DNA of 64,000 bases from NCBI GenBank assembly GCA_951406725.2, contig OX597837.1:4774001-4838000 (forward strand). Direction: 5' to 3'. The notes under the pieces were generated by a model. The model searched no databases. It was not told where the DNA came from and worked only from the letters and a program-made list of their open reading frames with translations. Every line of letters starts with the position of its first letter. Positions within the stretch are counted from its first letter, which is position 1. The position numbers and the translations under genes are program-made. Positions 24,104-53,626 of this stretch are shown piece after piece. Source of the DNA: Octopus vulgaris (lineage: Eukaryota).

Positions 24104-24160
<57 letters not shown>

Positions 24161-24164
<4 letters not shown>

Positions 24165-24481
24165 AAAATGGGACAAGAACGCAAAACATCCGGACAACTA
24201 GGTGATACAAAAAGGTACAACAAATCATCCAGATAGACGATACAAAAAAAACAAGGAGCCTTTTATCTTCAGTCAAGAACCGGATCATCCTCGCAATTTC
24301 CGCTGTTTAGTCTTGAGATTACTCGAATCTGGCCAGCCCCAAGGAAAAACTAAGCTAAGAGCATTAGATTCTTTGGAAGAAAGCATCGAATGTATACGAA
24401 AACAAGGACGGAAAAACAGACAATGTTACACGAATATAAATACAAAAATACAATAAAAATGACAATAAAAATAATAATAAC

Positions 24482-29007: not shown

Positions 29008-29907
29008 CTATTTGAATCTAGAAAAGGTGAACGGTAGCCTATGAATACAAAAGAAGCTTTTCTCATTAATGTTATTAATAATTTGCCGACCCGCTTTAAT
29101 AATGAAGAAAATTTCATTAATACATAGAGAGCATTTTTTATTTTTTCCATTATACACAGGTGCTGAAGTTAGTATTTTCCAGTTTAATCTAAAATCTAAG
29201 TTCTTACTTTTAAGTTCCCAAATATATGCACTTAGCCCTGTAGAGTACATTCTATTTTTATTCCTAAAAGTATATCTATGATAATTCCATCTTTGTTTTA
29301 TGCTATTCATAGTTGCCCCGATATACACTCTACTACTCAATTGTGTATCTACAGTGCATTGGTAAACTACCTCCTTCCTGAGGCATTGATTACCAAATAC
29401 ACATTTATTTTTATTTCTGCAATTACAAAGATTAACAGAATGAGGAAATCTAAGATTGGACACCACCCCTGTACTACTATTCACATTATAAGTGTTACAA
29501 TTGTTATCATCATCCAAACCCAAAATCAACGAATGAGTTAATTCCACATTATCGGCTATATTCCTATCACTAGTACTAGTATTGGTAGTAGTGGTATGAT
29601 CTATTACATTTATATTATCTCTGACAGGTATGGTGCACTCATTATTAGTAAGGAGGTTGCTCCCATTTGTTCCAAGAAAATTTCTATTCCTATTATTAAT
29701 GAAGAGGGGCAAGTTTTCCTGGTCTAAATTCAATTTTCTATCCTTATAGAAGTGATCCAGTTTCTTGTTATTAAAAGAGGAGATGATGGTGGCTAGATTA
29801 TGAGTAATGCTATATCCCACTCTAACAGTACCGTTGTTAATTAAAGGACTAAATTTATTCCTATCCTTACCAAAATGCCTAAAAATAATATTATGCAAAG
29901 CTCTCAC
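29008..29907 (-). CDS. PLE C-terminal region: linker, Cys knuckle and GIY-YIG endonuclease (5'-truncated, open 299 aa)
   Basis: [19 protein letters not shown]...[33 protein letters not shown]...CIH. Confidence 0.8.
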
Positions 29908-29915
29908 TATGTTTG

Positions 29916-31450: not shown

Positions 31451-31679
31451 ACATGCTACCAGACAGCAGTCTACAGTAATTATTCTCAAAGGCACCACTG
31501 ACCACAATCTTTTATATCAATGCCGAATACGTGTGTATATATATATATGTGTGTGTGTATATAAATCAGGCTGAACCCGGGTACAGCTCTCCGGCTTACC
31601 ACTTTCAGTCAAATACTGTAACCCATGCCAGTAGGGAAACCAGACGCTAAATGATGATATGTATTTATTTAATGTTGAT

Positions 31680-32470
31680 AAACAAGGACATAATATTGTG
31701 AAATCACTTGAGAATAGAAGAGAACCTTTCCAACCAAGACCTCCTCGTATAAATCTTAAACATCATAAACAAAATTTTATAAGTAACCCTGTTAGATTGA
31801 TTTGCCCAACTAAGTCGGATATTGGAAAGATAAGTAAACTCATTATAGATAGAATTGTACCTACACTTAAGAGGAAAATATCGATTAACTTATGGTCTAA
31901 TGTTATAGAAGTAATTAACTGGTTTAATAATAATCGTATTAATGATAAAATAAATATTAAATTCCCAAAAATCGATATTGATTTCTATACTTCTATCTAC
32001 TCTATACTTCTTAACGAAGCCCTTATCTTTGTTATGAAAAATTCTAATCTTACCAGAAATTATATAGATATCATCCTAGCAGCAAGGAGAACTATTATTA
32101 AATTTAATTATAAACTCTGGACGAGAAAGAATAGACAAAGCAACTTCGATATTACCAAGGGATCAAATGACTCTGCACAAATCACTGATCTTGTAGGCAT
32201 TCACTTATTATAATACATTAAAGATGAATTTCAGAGCTTTAATGACGGTCTTTATAGATATGATTCTTTACTGGTTTTACATAACGCCAGTAATGCAGAA
32301 TATATTAGATAAAAAAAATTTACCAGATACTTTAAGAATGTAGGATTATCTATTATATTTGATGATTTCCTAGATGTCACTTTAGATCTCTCTACTGGTT
32401 TTTATAAACCTTTCCACAAGGCAAATCAGACTCTTAATTATGTTAATCGTTTCTCCAGCCATTCAAAGGC
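31680..32470 (+). pseudogene. PLE reverse transcriptase fragment (Nematis-like lineage)
   Basis: RLICPTKSDIGKISK, IDIDFYTSI, KGSNDSAQITDLVG*, GLYRYD (GLYRDD-like), FLDVTLDLSTGFYKPFHKAN. Confidence 0.85.
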
Positions 32471-35711: not shown

Positions 35712-35811
35712 ATAAGATTAGCTCGTATACGAGTGGGTATATATTTGTAAAAAATGAAGTTCGAAAATGCTGCTATATTAGACTAATTTTTAATTTTTAT
35801 ATATACATTAT

Positions 35812-35848
35812 AACATGTTTCGGTTCTTGAAATGATGAACCTTATCAA
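35812..35848 (-). ncRNA. Hammerhead motif, U3-A8 core variant, at the PLE 3' end
   Basis: TTGATAA-GGTTC-atcatttcaa-GAACC-GAAAC-AT-GTT; stem I is weak. Confidence 0.55.
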
Positions 35849-36194
35849 AAAAAGTTATATATAAAAAAAGATAGTTCATGCTATCAAATATAAAAAATTC
35901 ATTTATAACATACAATAGAGTCAGGCATCAAAAGTTCATATATAGTGAAGTGAGTTCGTTCATGCTATATGTTCAAAGAGTATGATGCAGTGGTTCATAG
36001 TGGTGATATGCATTCAATATAAAAGATAGATCAAAGTGGTGATATGCAGTCAATATAAAAAATTGATGTTCCTGAAGGAGCGAGGAATTCATTTTAGATT
36101 TTACCTTGAGTAACTGTGATGACTTTTGGTCGGTGTTCGCTGGATAGTTCTGGCGAACCTTGTGAATTGTTTGGGTTTTATATCACCTGTTAGG

Positions 36195-36665: not shown

Positions 36666-38963
36666 TTAATATTCCTGGCCCAAGGTGTTTAAACTTGGTC
36701 TAAATTTTTTGATGAAATACAGTTCTTTATTTTGGCGTTGCGTGAAGGTTGCGTTGTCACTGAATTTATAAAGTGGGTAAGTTGTAAATTTCGGATTTAC
36801 ATTTCCAGCACATCTATCTATGTGTCCGCTGACCGGTATTTTCCGGTATTCAGGGTTTCTAATTTGTGATTTATGCACCGCCATCCTGTTACGTAAGCTA
36901 TTTTTTGTATGGCCTATATACTGCCTATTGCAGCCTGCGCATGTTATGACGTAAATTAAGTTTTCTGATGCGCAGGTGAAGTTTGCTCTAATGGTGAACT
37001 GGTGGCCTTGTTCTAGTATAAATTCTGAAACTTCTATCAAGATGACACAGATTCCGCAGTTGGGCCTTCCACATTTTCTAACTGCTGGTTTTGTGGTTGA
37101 TGTTGAGTGCAGTTTAGCTTGGGTTAAAATCCTTTTCAAGGATTTTGATTGCCGTTTACTTTTAATGATGGTGTGTGTTTCGAGGATCCGGTTCATCTTT
37201 GGGTCTCCCTTTAGTAGGGCTGTGCTTTGTAGTATGGTGCTGAAGGCCTCATTGTTGAGTGGGTTGTGTGTAGAGATGTAGGGAAGGGTTTTTAATTGTT
37301 CTTTCTTTTTTGGTTTTGTTTGTCTCAGGTCTTCTACACTTAATTTGAGTGCCCTTTGGATTGCACTGTCTATTAGGGGCTGTGGATAGTTTCTATTTGT
37401 GAGTGTGATTCTAAGTTCCTGGAGGCGTGTGTGTCGGGTGTTTGTGTCTGATATTATGGTGCAGATCCTTCTAGCTAAACAAAAAGGGACATTTATTCTT
37501 GTGTGTCGTGGGTGGCATGAATCAAAGGGTAGGTATTATTTGGAGTCTGTCGGTTTATAGTAGATATCTGTCTCTATTTTTTTGCCGGTTTTTTTAATGA
37601 GGATGTCTAAAAATGGTAATTCATTTTCGTTGTGGTCCATCGTGAATTGTATATTATCATTTATTCCATTTAATAGTATTTTAAATTCCTCAAGTTTCTC
37701 TATACCTTTGTCCCAGATGATGAAACAGTCATCGAGGTATCTTTTCCAGTTGTTATGGATATAGGTGGCGAAGGTGTTTCCAAATTTCTCGAGTGTTATC
37801 TGGTAGAGTATTTTCTCGAGGTATCCCATCACTAGGTTGACAAAAGATGGTGCAGTACGCGTGCCCATCGCTGTTCCCGATCTTTGTCTGTAGAAATTAT
37901 TGTCAAAAATAAAATAATTGTTCTCTAAAATAAATCTAAGTCCTTCTATTATAAGGTCTTTGTTTATGCGAGTTGGGAGTTCAAAGGGGTAGTTATTCAG
38001 CCAGAAGGTGATTGCTTCTATTCCTAGGTTGTGAGGGATGTTAGAATAAAGATTAACTACGTCGAATGATACTAGAAGGGTTTTCTCATTGACTGTTTTG
38101 GGGAGGTGGTTGAGCATATCTATATCGTCTCTTACGTAGCTTTTGATGTGTTTTAGGAAAGGTTTAAGAAGTGTGTCTAAGAAATTGCTGAGGCGGTGAG
38201 TCTCACATGCTGGCCCTGCTATTATCGGTCTAAGTTTAAGATCATTTGGTGAAGGGATTTTGATGAGTGTGTCGGTGGATGTTTTGCACGTTTCTCTAAT
38301 TATTTGGCTTTTGTGTACTTTAGGGATACCATAGAACAAACTCGATTTGCATTTGAAGTTAGTGATGTATTCATACTCCTTGTCCGTGAGTCCTTCTCGG
38401 TATGTGTTGATTAATGTCCTAAGGTTATGCATTATTTTTTGCTGATTATACTGTTGGGCCCTTTCATAATACGTTTCATCTCTTAATAGGGATAGCACTA
38501 AATTTTTATAATCGTTTGTATTCATTATTACTATCGCGTTGCCCTTATCTGCCTCCTTAATTGTTTTTGCTTTGTCTTCTCTTAGTTTGATGAGGTCGTT
38601 CCATTCTCTTTTGTTGAAGTTAGGGCTGTGTTTTTGTTTCTTGATGAATTGAAACGGGAAATTAGTCATGTAGTCACAATAGCGATCTAAGGCTTTATTC
38701 TTTCCCTTGGTGGGGGTGTAATTGCTCTTGTTTCTAGCTATTGAATCCTCCTCTATTTGTTTGTCTTGAAATTCCTCGGTGAGTCTTAGTTTTCTGCAAA
38801 ATTCCGAAATATCATCTTTCATTTCATAGTAATTAGAACGTTGTGGGGTTGGTGTAAACTTAAGTCCTTTGGAGAGTATGCTTATTTCGTTAGGTGTAAG
38901 TTCTTTGTTTGAGAGATTGATTATCTTAATTACCTGAGGTTTCTTTTGTTTGTCCTTTGCCAT
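36666..38963 (-). pseudogene. PLE polyprotein (RT, CxxxxCxxC Zn finger, GIY-YIG EN), about 765 codons with one in-frame stop at 37536-37538
   Basis: LRPIIAG, SFDVVNLYSNIP, GTAMG, RYLDDCF, LPFLDI. After the stop, YLPFDSCHPRHT continues in frame (339 nt) into KCGRPNCGIC...NLIYVITCAGCNRQYIG. Confidence 0.92.
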
Positions 38964-39841
38964 CGTGTGTCCCTGTTCCTGTGTGTAAGGTCTAAAAAAT
39001 GGTTGGTGTAGTTATGTTCAAAACTACTATTTATCTGTCTCATGTTGTTATAATTGTCAGAGTGAGTTTGTGGTGCTCTGTTCTGAAGTGTGTTGTTGTA
39101 CCTAGTGTTCCGTCTTAGTTCATCAGGTATATTGTGTTGGTAGTTGTTTCCTCCGTAGTGCATTTGTTGTTTGTTAGGTTTGTATGGTTGGTTCCTGGGG
39201 TGGATGTTTGGTAGTAGCGTTTTAGTTTGGTTATGTGGATTGTATTTTATAGTATTGTATGTTGTGGCTCTTAGGTTCGTGAAATGGTGTGGTGGGCCTC
39301 TGTAAGTGTTTTGGGGTTGGTGTAGGTAGTGTGGGTGCGTTTTAAATGTATTTTTCTGGTGTAGAGTGTGTTTGGATTTCTTGGTGGTTGTTCTGCTCTG
39401 TTGGTATATCTATTTTCGAACTGGTGTGGTGGGCCTCTGTAGGTGTTTTGGGGTTGGTGTAGGTAGTGTGGGGTGTGTTTTAAGTGTATTTTTCTGGTGT
39501 AGAGTATGTTAGGATTTCTTGGTGGTTGTTCCGTTCTGTTGGTATTTGGTTTTGAGTTACTTAATTTTATGAAGGGGTTGTTGGATATGTGTTCATTTTT
39601 GAAGTTGGTTTCATAATCTAAAAACCAGATGGCGCTCTTTTCCCATCGTTGGAGGGACTTAAAGTTCCTCTTTTTCACATTCTTCATTCCATAGTGCTGG
39701 TAATGTTTCAGTATTGATGTCGTCTATTAGTTTGATGACTTCTTCGTTGATTTCCTCGTCTATGGTTTTTACTTTTTCTTCATTCGTCTTAGCTCTCAGC
39801 TTGAGTAGTTCTATTTTCATCTTCATTTTTTCTAATGACAT
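38930..39841 (-). pseudogene. Disrupted upstream ORF (ORF1-like) of the PLE
   Basis: E/K-rich helical segment, then an N/P/T/H-rich region with an about 120-bp tandem duplication. The last piece overlaps the RT ATG in another frame. Confidence 0.5.
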
Positions 39842-40633: not shown

Positions 40634-42193
40634 AGAAGGTTTGAAAATGCAATTTAAAAGATGTTTATTTACTTAACCGGTTTCACCCTTTGGAAAAAGA
40701 TTGTCAAAAGTAACAGAATATTATGAATTCAAAAAAGTTTTTTTACATAATTGCCACATAACATGTATATATACAGTCTTTGGTAACAGGGACATGTTAA
40801 GGATATAAAGAAGTACAACAGTGTGATGAGAATATTTGAAAAAATGAGCAGAAAAGAATAAAACAAATATATTATTGGAAGTTTGGTTGCGTTAATTATT
40901 GGTTGTTGCAAATTGCCACATTACATGTATATAAACAGTCTTTGGTAACAAGGACATGCTAATGACATAAGAAAGTACAACAGTATGATGAGAATATTTG
41001 AAAAAATGGGCAGAAAAGATTAAAATGAATATATTATACATCTCAGGGTCATTACAGAATTACAGAATATTATGAATTCAAGTCTGTTTGTCAAGTGTGT
41101 GTGGTTGTCATGGTGTTGTGTGTGCGTGTGTGCGCGCGTGTGCGTGTGCGCGTGCGCGTGTACGCACGCATGAGTGTGGATGGCATTTGACATGGTGCTG
41201 CGTGTGTATATATGTGCCTGTATATATATATATATGTGTGTATATATGCGCACGGGCGGGCACGCATATATACACACACCATCCTACCCCAAAAAATTCT
41301 TTAAACAACACACATCTATTTTCGCCACCCTGGAACCATTCAAAAACAGCCCCCACACACACGCAGACGCTTGTATACGTGTGTGCGCACGCACACAGGG
41401 GCACGCACACTCACACCAGTCTCACCTCCATACAGGTACATATATACACACGCAGCACCATGTCAAATGCCATCCACACTCATGCGTGCGTACACGCGCA
41501 CGCGCACGCGCGCACACACGCACACACAACACCATGACAACCACACACACTTGACAAACAGACGCCATCTGACCAAATACTACAGACACACAGACACATC
41601 TATTCACACACACGCAGAGAGACACATATATTCACCTCATCCTAACCCCAAAATCATTGATGCTTGAAGGAAAACCAAAAACAGAAAAAAACGGGTACAT
41701 CTTTCTCAATTCAACATTTCTGCTAAAACGGACAGGTCAGTAAACAAACTCGCCTTGAATTCATAATATTCTGTAATGACCCTGAGATGTATAATATATT
41801 CATTTTAATCTTTTCTGCCCATTTTTTCAAATATTCTCATCATACTGTTGTACTTTCTTATGTCATTAGCATGTCCTTGTTACCAAAGACTGTTTATATA
41901 CATGTAATGTGGCAATTTGCAACAACCAATAATTAACGCAACCAAACTTCCAATAATATATTTGTTTTCTTCTTTTCTGCCCATTTTTCAAATATTCTCA
42001 TCACACTGTTGTACTTCTTTATGTCCTTAACATGTCCCTGTTACCAAAGACTGTATATGTTATGTGGCAATTATGTAAAAAAACTTTTTTGAATTCATAA
42101 TATTCTATGTTACTTTTGACAATCTTTTTCCAAAGAGTGAAACCGGTTAAGTAAATAAACATCTTTTAAATTGCATTTTCAAACCTTCTTTCG
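40631..42193. mobile_element. 1.56-kb fold-back element, family H3, with two inverted hammerheads (40669-40713 minus, 42110-42154 plus)
   Basis: Arms are 40631-41081 / 41755-42193 and 41082-41223 / 41430-41562. Motif: ttactt-TTGACAA-TCTTT-ttcc-AAAGA-gt-GAAAC-CG-GTT-aagtaa. Confidence 0.8.
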
Positions 42194-44055: not shown

Positions 44056-44311
44056 CGATGCGGAAAGTGAATAGAGGCTGACTTATTTTATGGGAGGGCG
44101 CATGGCTTAGTGGTTAGGGCATTCCACTCACGATTGTAAGGTCGTGAGTTCAATTCCCGGCGACGCGTTATGTCCTTGAGTAAGACACATATGAGAAGGA
44201 CTGTCTTGTTTTGTTTTTACTGTCCTGTTCTTGTTACCATGTTTACCCATCCGCAAAAAATAGCAAATTTTATTTAACTTGCTTTGCGGGAAGGACTGTT
44301 TCAACGAAGTT

Positions 44312-44371
44312 GCGTCTTGTCCTTACCATCGAAATGCGGAGCAGACAAATCAGGGACAGCTGAAGAAGGGG
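44312..44371 (+). ncRNA. Putative non-circularly permuted hammerhead (family P2 element, about 44190-44510)
   Basis: GCG-TC|TTGTCCT-taCCaTC-GAAA-TGC-linker-GGGACAG-CTGAAGA-a-GGGG. Confidence 0.55.
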
Positions 44372-44579
44372 AATATTCCTTGTGTTGTATGTCTTGTACT
44401 CTATTTTTTCGTTCTTTGAAAAAAAGTTCGTTACCATGTTTTTGTTTTTATATTTTCATTTCTCATTGTGTTCAACTTTTTTTTTTGGTGTCCTGTACCC
44501 ATATATGCATGTATGTATACATGAATATGTAGGTATGTACATATATGTATGTATATGTGCATATATGTGCATACATTTG

Positions 44580-44616
<37 letters not shown>

Positions 44617-47648: not shown

Positions 47649-48449
47649 AATATAAAAAAAGGGGAACCAAGAAGTGGACCGAAACGACGAATCGGAACGA
47701 ACCTGATGCGGGCCGCTGTCAGACAATAAGGAGATAAATAAAAATATATATGCATACATACAAACATATATGTACGTACCTACATCTACATATATATATA
47801 CATGCATATATAAATAATTATACGGGAGTACAGGACATCACAATAAGACGTAGAAACGGAAAAAAACAAAATACAAAAAACGAGAAAACGGAAAACGAAA
47901 AACAAGAAAACGAAAAACAAATACAGGACGGGCTACACACGTCTTCTCGTTTTGTAACTAATTGTATTTTTTGTACATGTATTTTTATTTTTGCAGTTTT
48001 ATCGTTTGTCTATGCCAGAAAAAAGGCTTTTTCGTTCGTCCTCTTGTGTTTGTTTTTGTACATGTATTTTAATTTTGCAGTCTTATTGTTACGTCTTGTT
48101 TGTGTTCGTACTCATTTTGCCCCGCTGCTTGGAATTTTATTTTAATTCTCTCGCAGGAAGGCCTATTGGATTAGTGTTCTGTCTTGCCTTCGAAACATGC
48201 CTGACTCCTCTAGCGACAGCTGATGACGGGGGTTTTGTCCTTGTGTAGCCCGTCCTGTATTTGTTTTTCGTTTTCTTGTTTTTCGTTTTCCGTTTTCTCG
48301 TTTTTTGTTTTTTGTTTTTTTCCGTTTCTACGTCTTATTGTGATGTCCTGTACTCCCGTATAATTATTTATATATGCATGTATATATACATGTAGATGTA
48401 GGTACGTACATATATGTTTGTATGTATGCATATATATTTTTATTTATCT

Positions 48450-48490
<41 letters not shown>

Positions 48491-52784: not shown

Positions 52785-53487
52785 GTGACAAAAGAACAAC
52801 AATTTATATAATGAACTTCATTAGCTTACAGCTGTTTCCGCTCTAATATATAATGCGTGTCGCTGCTATAAGCATATATATTTCCGCAGAATTTAATCTA
52901 CGCCTGGTGCTTTAATAAAAGACAATTACCTTACAAAATTTCATTGATTTAAAGAATAATGGGAGTTTTATCAAGAGCTGCGTTGATAGGAATCGAAACC
53001 AGATTTGCATTAAAAACCCTTATATATTTGGACGGTCTTTTCAGAGCATTTTGAAAGTATACAGCTCCTATTTTTCATGAATTGCTTTCATGTTTTGTCA
53101 GTTATAAATACATTTCCATTTGCTCTGAGAGCGAATGAAATACCCACGCGAGATTCGTAACAGATTATACATAAAATTTTTATGCATTATCATTTTTTGT
53201 ATCAACTTACATCGATGTCGTTTGAGCTCTTTTTTCAAGGCACATGAATCTTATGAATCTTCATGAATCTTATTTCGTTATTTTCTGCGGAGCATTTGAC
53301 CTTATCGACGATCTGTGTTACTGCATATATCTTATCCTTTTTTCCGAATCCAAAGAATCTCCTTCGTGTTCTGTAAGTTATAATGTGTGTGAATGTGTCT
53401 GCATAACTTTTAAGTGGTTTGTGTTATTTTGTGCATATTTTTGCATATAATGGCGGCTTGTTAAGTGTGTGTGTGAGAAATAGTATA

Positions 53488-53553
53488 GCAATCTCAAGAT
53501 TAATCAGCCGAAATTGCGAGGATGATCCGGTTCTTGACTGAAGATTGAAGGCT
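53488..53553 (+). ncRNA. Putative non-circularly permuted hammerhead (family P1 element to about 53628)
   Basis: GCAA-TC|TCAAGA-ttaatc-AGCC-GAAA-TTGC-linker-TCTTGA-CTGAAGA-ttgaa-GGCT. Stems III (5 bp) and I (6 bp) are perfect. Confidence 0.65.
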
Positions 53554-53626
53554 TCGAATGTCCCGTCCGTGTTTTTTGTATCGTCTTCTAAATGTTTTGC
53601 GTTCTTGTCCCAGATTGTATTTTTTT

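Follow-up and report, generated by a model that had tools for sequence, protein, structure and literature searches.

A reversed-order hammerhead motif with a predicted four-way junction in Naiad Penelope-like elements and non-coding repeats of Octopus vulgaris

At positions 53,488 to 53,553 of a 64,000-nucleotide stretch of the Octopus vulgaris genome (contig OX597837.1; hereafter the window), the three conserved strands of a hammerhead ribozyme follow one another in the order UH, GAAA, CUGANGA. This raises the question of whether strands laid out in this way can form a hammerhead, what then serves as stem II, and which elements carry them. A sequence-only reading had described the order at four loci, with co-varying stems I and III and a weaker stem II, and had proposed a pseudoknotted or dimer-assembled self-cleaving RNA of mobile elements. 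The observation of a reversed-order hammerhead is real and larger than first seen. We consider it likely, judging from sequence and pairing, that the motif is a four-piece hammerhead with a four-way junction in which the G10.1-C11.1 pair is kept, that it resides in the 3' repeats of Naiad Penelope-like elements and their derivatives, and that it is self-cutting.

Block order, core and cut position

The strand order is present at all four window loci (24257, 44312, 48174 and 53488), and at each of them stems I and III stand in hammerhead register with the core. We name the blocks S (the 5' strands of stems III and I around the UH), G (strand b, GAAA and the 3' strand of stem III) and C (the 3' strand of stem I, CUGANGA and strand a). 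The cut is predicted after H17, as first proposed (Table 1). The motif thus occurs at four loci, but these represent three distinct repeat families rather than four copies of one: F1 comprises 53488 and 24257, F2 comprises 44312, and F3 comprises 48174.

A strict descriptor covering six block orders gave two S-G-C matches in the window (48174 and 53488) and none for the five other orders, against a background of 0.033 matches per shuffled window (30 shuffles). The copies at 24257 and 44312 were missed because their stem II fails. With the stem II requirement dropped, 735,611 bases of loci enriched for the three families yielded 70 S-G-C matches and none for the four other orders tested. The core of CUGANGA, GAAA and an NUH triplet with A15.1-U16.1 was found in the four window copies and in eight representatives. 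A15.1-U16.1 and every catalytic-core position are kept across unrelated sequences, whose triplets are GUU, GUC, AUC and GUA; among F1 subfamilies N7 varies (A, G, U) and the remaining core is kept. The linker from stem I to strand b measures 1-4 nt.

Across the eight representatives, stem III is Watson-Crick at 23/24 pairs and stem I at 37/40, with two to four pair types per position; partner permutations did equally well in 0/5000 and 2/5000 cases, counts that overstate independence, as the eight form three related groups. Pairs were counted by a script on core-anchored positions, since MAFFT misaligned the blocks between families. Because the four loci are three families, with 53488 and 24257 in the same one, the covariation claimed for stems I and III stands between families and not within any of them. 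Among 30 copies of F2, conservation was 0.963 in the core and 0.971 in the flanks, as expected of dead copies, and therefore copies within a single family lend covariation no support. No hammerhead model was among the matches listed (150 of 281) in an Rfam scan of the window, and the Rfam hammerhead models had no match at either of two window copies at E up to 10. The paper on non-circular hammerheads mentioned in the sequence-only reading does exist: it describes type SGC (HRIMA-1 and variants), which has this non-circular order and was shown to cleave (Eckert, Friedrich, Weinberg and Weinberg 2023, PMC10085705).

An upstream block with partners for both stem II strands

In the textbook hammerhead CUGANGA and stem II are inseparable, and a split arrangement is predicted to be inactive. 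The stem II first proposed here (CCTTC/GGGGG, or AGCC/GGCT after 5 nt) did not survive: its pairing probability was 0.0 in 22/22 folded copies. A stem II built from the strand directly after CUGANGA had 5, 11 and 9 of 32 Watson-Crick pairs in three registers, equalled by 4420, 2228 and 4891 of 5000 permutations, and so was no better than permuted partners. In F1 the stem II first proposed requires a 5-nt insert, and this pairing is gone in an older subfamily. The three-strand model was right about the order and about stems I and III, but incomplete, since a fourth block upstream holds partners for both strands that it had assigned to stem II.

In every complete copy a strand a', a hairpin P and a strand b' follow each other upstream of block S without unpaired spacer, and the full motif reads, from 5' to 3', J (a'-P-b'), S, G, C. 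Strand b' pairs with strand b, which precedes GAAA (GAAGGC/GCCUUC in F3, GAAGG/CCUUC in F2, GGCUG/CAGCC in F1, GACACC/GGUGUC in Naiad), and a' pairs with strand a, which follows CUGANGA (CCCCG/CGGGG in F3, CCCCU/AGGGG in F2, up to 14 bp in F1). The junction block accompanied 82/109 core matches in the loci examined. With junction positions chosen by best score, Watson-Crick pairs in the eight representatives amounted to 34/40 for b':b, 30/32 for P and 32/40 for a:a', equalled by 3, 3 and 14 of 5000 partner permutations, respectively, and up to four pair types per position occur across the five helices. When the 110 nt upstream were shuffled, 0 or 1 of 500 sequences reached the junction score in 7/11 copies; the four exceptions were the focal copy (59/500), 24257 (62/500), L166 (64/500) and 44312 (6/500). 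The first one or two a:a' positions of F1 are often U-U or C-U mismatches.

A G opens strand b' in 8/8 representatives and directly follows A9 in 0/8, so b' would occupy the place of G10.1. The closing pair of b':b is G-C in five, G-U in two and G-G in one of the eight single copies, and G-C in the marine contig L273 described below; the pair 10.1-11.1 is the most conserved of the hammerhead after A15.1-U16.1 (PMC3088659). Nested folding, which is blind to the pseudoknotted stems I and III, gave the copy at 48174 probabilities of 0.65 for a:a', 1.0 for P, 0.99 for b':b and 0.0 for a direct stem II. It recovered b':b in F3 and in several F1 copies; the copies of F2 folded otherwise, as did two of the three from Naiads, and in these b':b was not recovered. 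The folding energy of the whole motif was unusual in 2/6 cases (z -3.25 and -4.40, the rest -0.23 to -0.97). In type SGC an additional helix links the far sides of stems I and II. Here a candidate distal extension of stem III, joining b' to the 3' strand of stem I, beat shuffles in 2/8 and is strong in L022 and L273; the distance from b' to U16.1 is 20 nt in F1, F3 and Naiad1.

From pairing potential and variation across families, b':b would be stem II, with b' giving G10.1 opposite C11.1, and a:a' together with P would add a further arm, placed between A9 and G10.1, which turns the fold into a four-way junction. The stacking we infer would place b':b on the core G-A pairs and a:a' on P. Such a fold would probably work like a hammerhead. 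The focal copy is probably inert, because it begins six bases before the cut and lacks the junction block.

Table 1. Features of the window (H17 marks the base after which the cut is predicted)
Feature	Position	Strand	Description
F1 copy, focal	53487..53623	+	5' truncation point about six bases ahead of the cut site, without junction block, then (CA)n/(TA)n
Focal block S	53488..53499	+	stem III 5' strand 53488-53492; H17 = C 53493; stem I 5' strand 53494-53499
Focal block G	53505..53517	+	strand b 53505-53509; GAAA 53510-53513; stem III 3' strand
Focal block C	53532..53558	+	stem I 3' strand 53532-53537; CUGAAGA 53538-53544; strand a 53545-53558, its partner a' missing
F1 copy, decayed junction	24146..24480	-	P starts 24376; b' 24338; H17 24317; GAAA 24300-24297; CUGAAGA 24272-24266; closing G-C of b':b lost; (TA)n abuts both sides
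F2 copy	44200..44607	+	a' 44246-44250; P 44251-44289; b' 44290-44294; H17 44316; GAAA 44331-44334; CUGAAGA 44360-44366; single mismatch in a:a' and in b':b
F3 copy, complete motif	47944..48479	+	young; 97% to tandem copy elsewhere; ends in (TA)n
F3 junction block J	48120..48162	+	a' 48120-48124; P 48125-48156; b' 48157-48162; shuffles as good 0/500
F3 blocks S, G, C	48174..48231	+	H17 = U 48178; b 48186-48191; GAAA 48192-48195; CUGAUGA 48220-48226; a 48227-48231
Second F3 segment	47635..47939	-	inverted, 5'-truncated, joined upstream; 214-nt inverted arms; Penelope-like insertion pattern
tRNA-like SINE head	~44095-44190	+	immediately precedes the F2 copy (read by eye); not fixed in other F2 copies
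Inverted arms	40840-41060 / 41768-41988		221 nt, 99% complementary, 707 nt apart, inside a larger inverted arrangement
Neptune-like Penelope element	36666-39011	-	Pfam matches to RT and GIY-YIG; 150 scored copies at 94-100%
Neptune-like element, 3' end	~35788-35852	-	minimal circular-order hammerhead, U3-A8 core variant
Hydra-type Penelope-like endonuclease end and separate RT fragment nearby	29008-29913 / 31635-32213	- / +	young family, 150 scored copies at 91-100%

Repeat families and their relation to Naiad elements

Exact gapped patterns matched 2223 times for F1, 159 times for F2 and 162 times for F3 in the assembly (2.8 Gb in 227 contigs), which are lower bounds, and reversed controls gave 0; 200 kb of arbitrarily chosen stretches held one complete core. 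An ungapped repeat search was dominated by microsatellites. The units of all three families are non-coding and 720-850 nt long, and the longest ATG frame, of 93 codons, leaves them without a GIY-YIG/RT ORF. Units arranged head to tail repeat every 786 nt, 853 nt or 723-726 nt (a five-copy array), and every ~800 nt by eye in F2, each tandem unit carrying one hammerhead-like motif. F3 copies are 98-99% uniform. Contigs from four runs span most of the unit; their status as RNA is uncertain and they are blind to strand, ends and circles. Further families or subfamilies with the motif were seen in the flanks of L148 (2999-3150, +), L166 (~2130-2270, +), L189 (1421-1550, +) and L044, and the families of this genome thus outnumber the three seen in the window.

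The tie to mobile elements that target microsatellites, suggested at the outset, was borne out. The 3' ends of units cluster in (TA)n or (CA)n and the 5' ends are scattered, and partial tandems and inverted 5'-truncated partners occur; (TA)n targets, partial tandems and inverted 5'-truncated copies are among the insertion habits of Penelope-like elements given in the sections of PMC8557442 consulted. Every insert continues without a break across the cut site. A cluster at -6 among the 5' ends of F1 is biased by the query used, and the F3 3'-end clusters at +267 and +293, considered as a Penelope 'tail', were set aside, the second possibly arising from alignment into (TA)n.

Naiads, a clade of Penelope-like elements, were reported without canonical hammerhead, and eight cases were flagged as 'HHR_half_core', their second half lying at a distance of 35-50 nt to one side or the other, and with Octopus vulgaris and Euprymna included (Craig et al. 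2021, PMC8557442, in the portions drawn on here). By eye, the Naiad_Obim and Naiad_Ovul consensi from that source carry the four-block motif at their 3' end. A Naiad-type core pattern had 380 exact matches in the genome (control 0); comparison of the 100 of these that were listed with 102 RT C-terminus matches gave, by eye, 9 same-strand pairs with the motif 0.76-1.87 kb behind the Naiad RT C-terminus. At L233, decayed RT motifs lie ahead of the four-block motif. The Naiad RT C-terminus matches P0097, which has GIY-YIG at 30-119 (N-terminal) and RT at 530-740 (C-terminal); Pfam had no match for this genome's own Naiad RT-end fragments. The Naiad copies found in the genome are decayed, with a longest open frame of 263 codons. 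Between the F1-F3 units and the Naiad tails we found no similarity outside the motif.

We surveyed by eye, in the published Naiad consensi (PMC8557442), the passages around part of the CUGANGA occurrences. Across the published Naiad consensi, nine have the J-S-G-C layout by eye. In the passages surveyed, three from Acropora, Naiad-2_Movir, one from Clytia, Naiad_Plae and one from Darwinula, whose host groups are corals, jellyfish, an acanthocephalan and an ostracod, combine it with a closing G-C pair and with strands that cannot form a direct stem II; Naiad_Esco has it in decayed form. Six nematode consensi are of type C-S-G with a direct stem II (three Nippostrongylus were named by adjacent headers and the others placed by file position), and in spider consensi the order is S-G-C, with different hairpins inserted. 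We lean towards an active four-block hammerhead, outside the six enumerated permutations, being an ancient feature of Naiads, present in cnidarians, acanthocephalans, crustaceans and cephalopods, nematode Naiads having CSG, which would explain the reported absence and would drive the thousands of units found here.

The motif marks some Naiad lineages and not all. It is not universal, because 0/73 metagenome Naiad tails passed the descriptor (antisense, upstream and shuffled controls also 0); the 73, many of them short, are those with at least 200 nt downstream among 80 metagenome Naiad-like RT-end loci, and the majority come from a subclade whose conserved 3' fold is a different one. One of these loci, the marine contig L273, has J-S-G-C, with the triplet GUU, behind a Naiad-like RT; it was found by eye and had been missed by the descriptor because its hairpin P has two U-U mismatches. 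No Rfam hammerhead model matched in 20 and 7 metagenome loci, and no Naiad relatives were found in viral contigs.

Our search also brought up other features of these contigs. Another Naiad subclade (L248, L251-L321, 22 loci aligned) has a different structured motif 30-130 nt past the RT match, with two-sided changes in 8/10 predicted pairs and no Rfam match. In L273 (2-1765, +) the Naiad-like RT C-terminus continues in frame into a ubiquitin C-terminal hydrolase-like domain, as it does in P0009 (Pfam UCH).

Young Hydra-type and Neptune-like families are abundant in this genome, and members of both lie in the window. The window's own elements were rejected as parents of the units: no S-G-C motif of their own was present in 60 loci, and one such motif, in L148, is in the flank. 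A Hydra-type ORF had been hinted at as parent of F1 by L016; F1 follows it in 1/10 ORF copies, L016 alone, which points to an insertion or a chimera. The 3' end of the Neptune-like element has a minimal circular-order hammerhead of a kind described in the relevant part of PMC4209133. Within 1.5 kb no hammerhead was found in the long AT-rich tail of the Hydra-type element. A separate RT fragment lies near the Hydra-type endonuclease end, and Pfam matched neither.

Predicted working and comparison with known systems

Naiad-clade Penelope-like retroelements would carry the motif in their 3' terminal repeat, and the 720-850-nt non-coding derivatives would carry it as well. Read-through of head-to-tail copies would give one ribozyme per unit, and self-cleavage after H17 would trim multimers to unit length, with monomers possibly joined again to form circles. 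A reverse transcriptase/endonuclease of Penelope-like type, supplied in trans, would copy the RNA into (TA)n; because inserts run through the cut site, the RNA copied would be uncut or re-ligated. A start of copying ~110-290 nt past the cut would account for 3' ends that are fixed, for 5' truncation to varying extents, and for the partial tandems and inverted copies.

The same continuity through the cut site would also suit a hammerhead-derived signal, non-catalytic or only protein-assisted, that is bound by an element protein and marks the RNA for reverse transcription. We regard this as unlikely. It stays a rival because, in a Penelope-like element of Anolis, hammerhead cutting depended on protein, was not required for insertion in vitro and left no read ends in RNA-seq (PMC11167929, parts consulted); the different conserved fold at the 3' end of another Naiad subclade would agree with it as well. 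Binding alone, however, would hardly demand that the core, the NUH and A15.1-U16.1 be kept across unrelated sequences, and the sister Naiads in the surveyed passages carry clean type CSG, a tested active order (PMC10085705, parts consulted).

It is improbable that the junction is an off-switch, b' and a' sequestering the stem II strands of an active form that, once refolded, would be plain type SGC, its stem II direct and short. In F1 and Naiad copies the two strands either cannot pair directly or do so over 1-2 bp, by eye such pairing is absent from the coral and ostracod consensi surveyed, and G-C closure is preserved in b':b and not in a:b, even though F2 and F3 can form a G-U-rich direct stem II of 4-6 bp after one extra base and hammerheads whose stem II is one base pair long can be active (PMC3088659). 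That two RNA molecules or tandem units assemble a hammerhead of canonical geometry, as the sequence-only reading had allowed, is very improbable, and nothing was found in favour of such assembly of these strands. Minimal Penelope-like hammerheads are thought to act as dimers (PMC4209133, in the part considered) and tandem copies exist, but ~130-150 nt of a single molecule suffice to close all five helices, the stem III loop is not palindromic, and consecutive blocks from neighbouring units would still be non-circular in order. Chance pairing in dead repeats rich in simple sequence, with which an F2 core no more conserved than its flanks and a non-significant junction score in 4/11 copies would agree, is scarcely credible given the descriptor background and an anatomy shared by separate families and phyla in different letters, and is already largely refuted by the variation across families.

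The four-piece hammerhead that we favour resembles several known systems in part. It shares with hammerhead variants credited to Weinberg et al. 2015 the presence of additional helices on a hammerhead core, a comparison made by description only from part of PMC13725137. Like the Naiads of PMC8557442, the F1-F3 units have (TA)n targets, partial tandems and inverted 5'-truncated copies; unlike them, they lack an ORF, and the portions of that paper drawn on here describe no permuted or junction fold. Non-coding tandem units with one hammerhead each are also known as non-LTR retrozymes, proposed to be non-autonomous Penelope-like derivatives (PMC4209133; bioRxiv 10.64898/2026.07.22.740005; both in the sections considered). 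Their hammerheads are type I, of circular order and often dimer-dependent, in contrast to the reversed-order monomeric fold predicted here.

The closest likeness is to type SGC, with which the motif has in common the S-G-C order, the conserved core, the pseudoknotted stems I and III and a very short linker from stem I to strand b (the linker from stem I to stem II in type SGC being roughly 3 nt, PMC10085705). In type SGC, stem II links G and C directly and the blocks are assumed to be indivisible; in our motif block C is divided and J, a fourth block lying upstream, is predicted to form a four-way junction, and the motif does not consist of three uninterrupted blocks. The published examples, seen to cleave, come from metatranscriptomes, and none from genomes of known organisms was reported in the sections considered (RefSeq 85 searched); ours are genomic repeats of animal retroelements and known from sequence. 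In a literature search that missed most subscription papers, type SGC appeared only in Eckert et al., and neither permuted hammerheads in Naiads nor the junction had been reported. The S-G-C order is thus already known, and its setting in animal genomic repeats is new. Non-circular RNA permutations had been known only from uncultured RNA agents, without biological context. If the motifs cut, such ribozymes would exist in animal genomes in thousands of copies, with a role in a defined retroelement clade, and the 'half-core' puzzle of Naiad elements would be resolved. The hammerhead core would then tolerate an arm of two helices inserted between A9 and G10.1, an arrangement that current descriptors do not allow, and many such ribozymes would have been missed.
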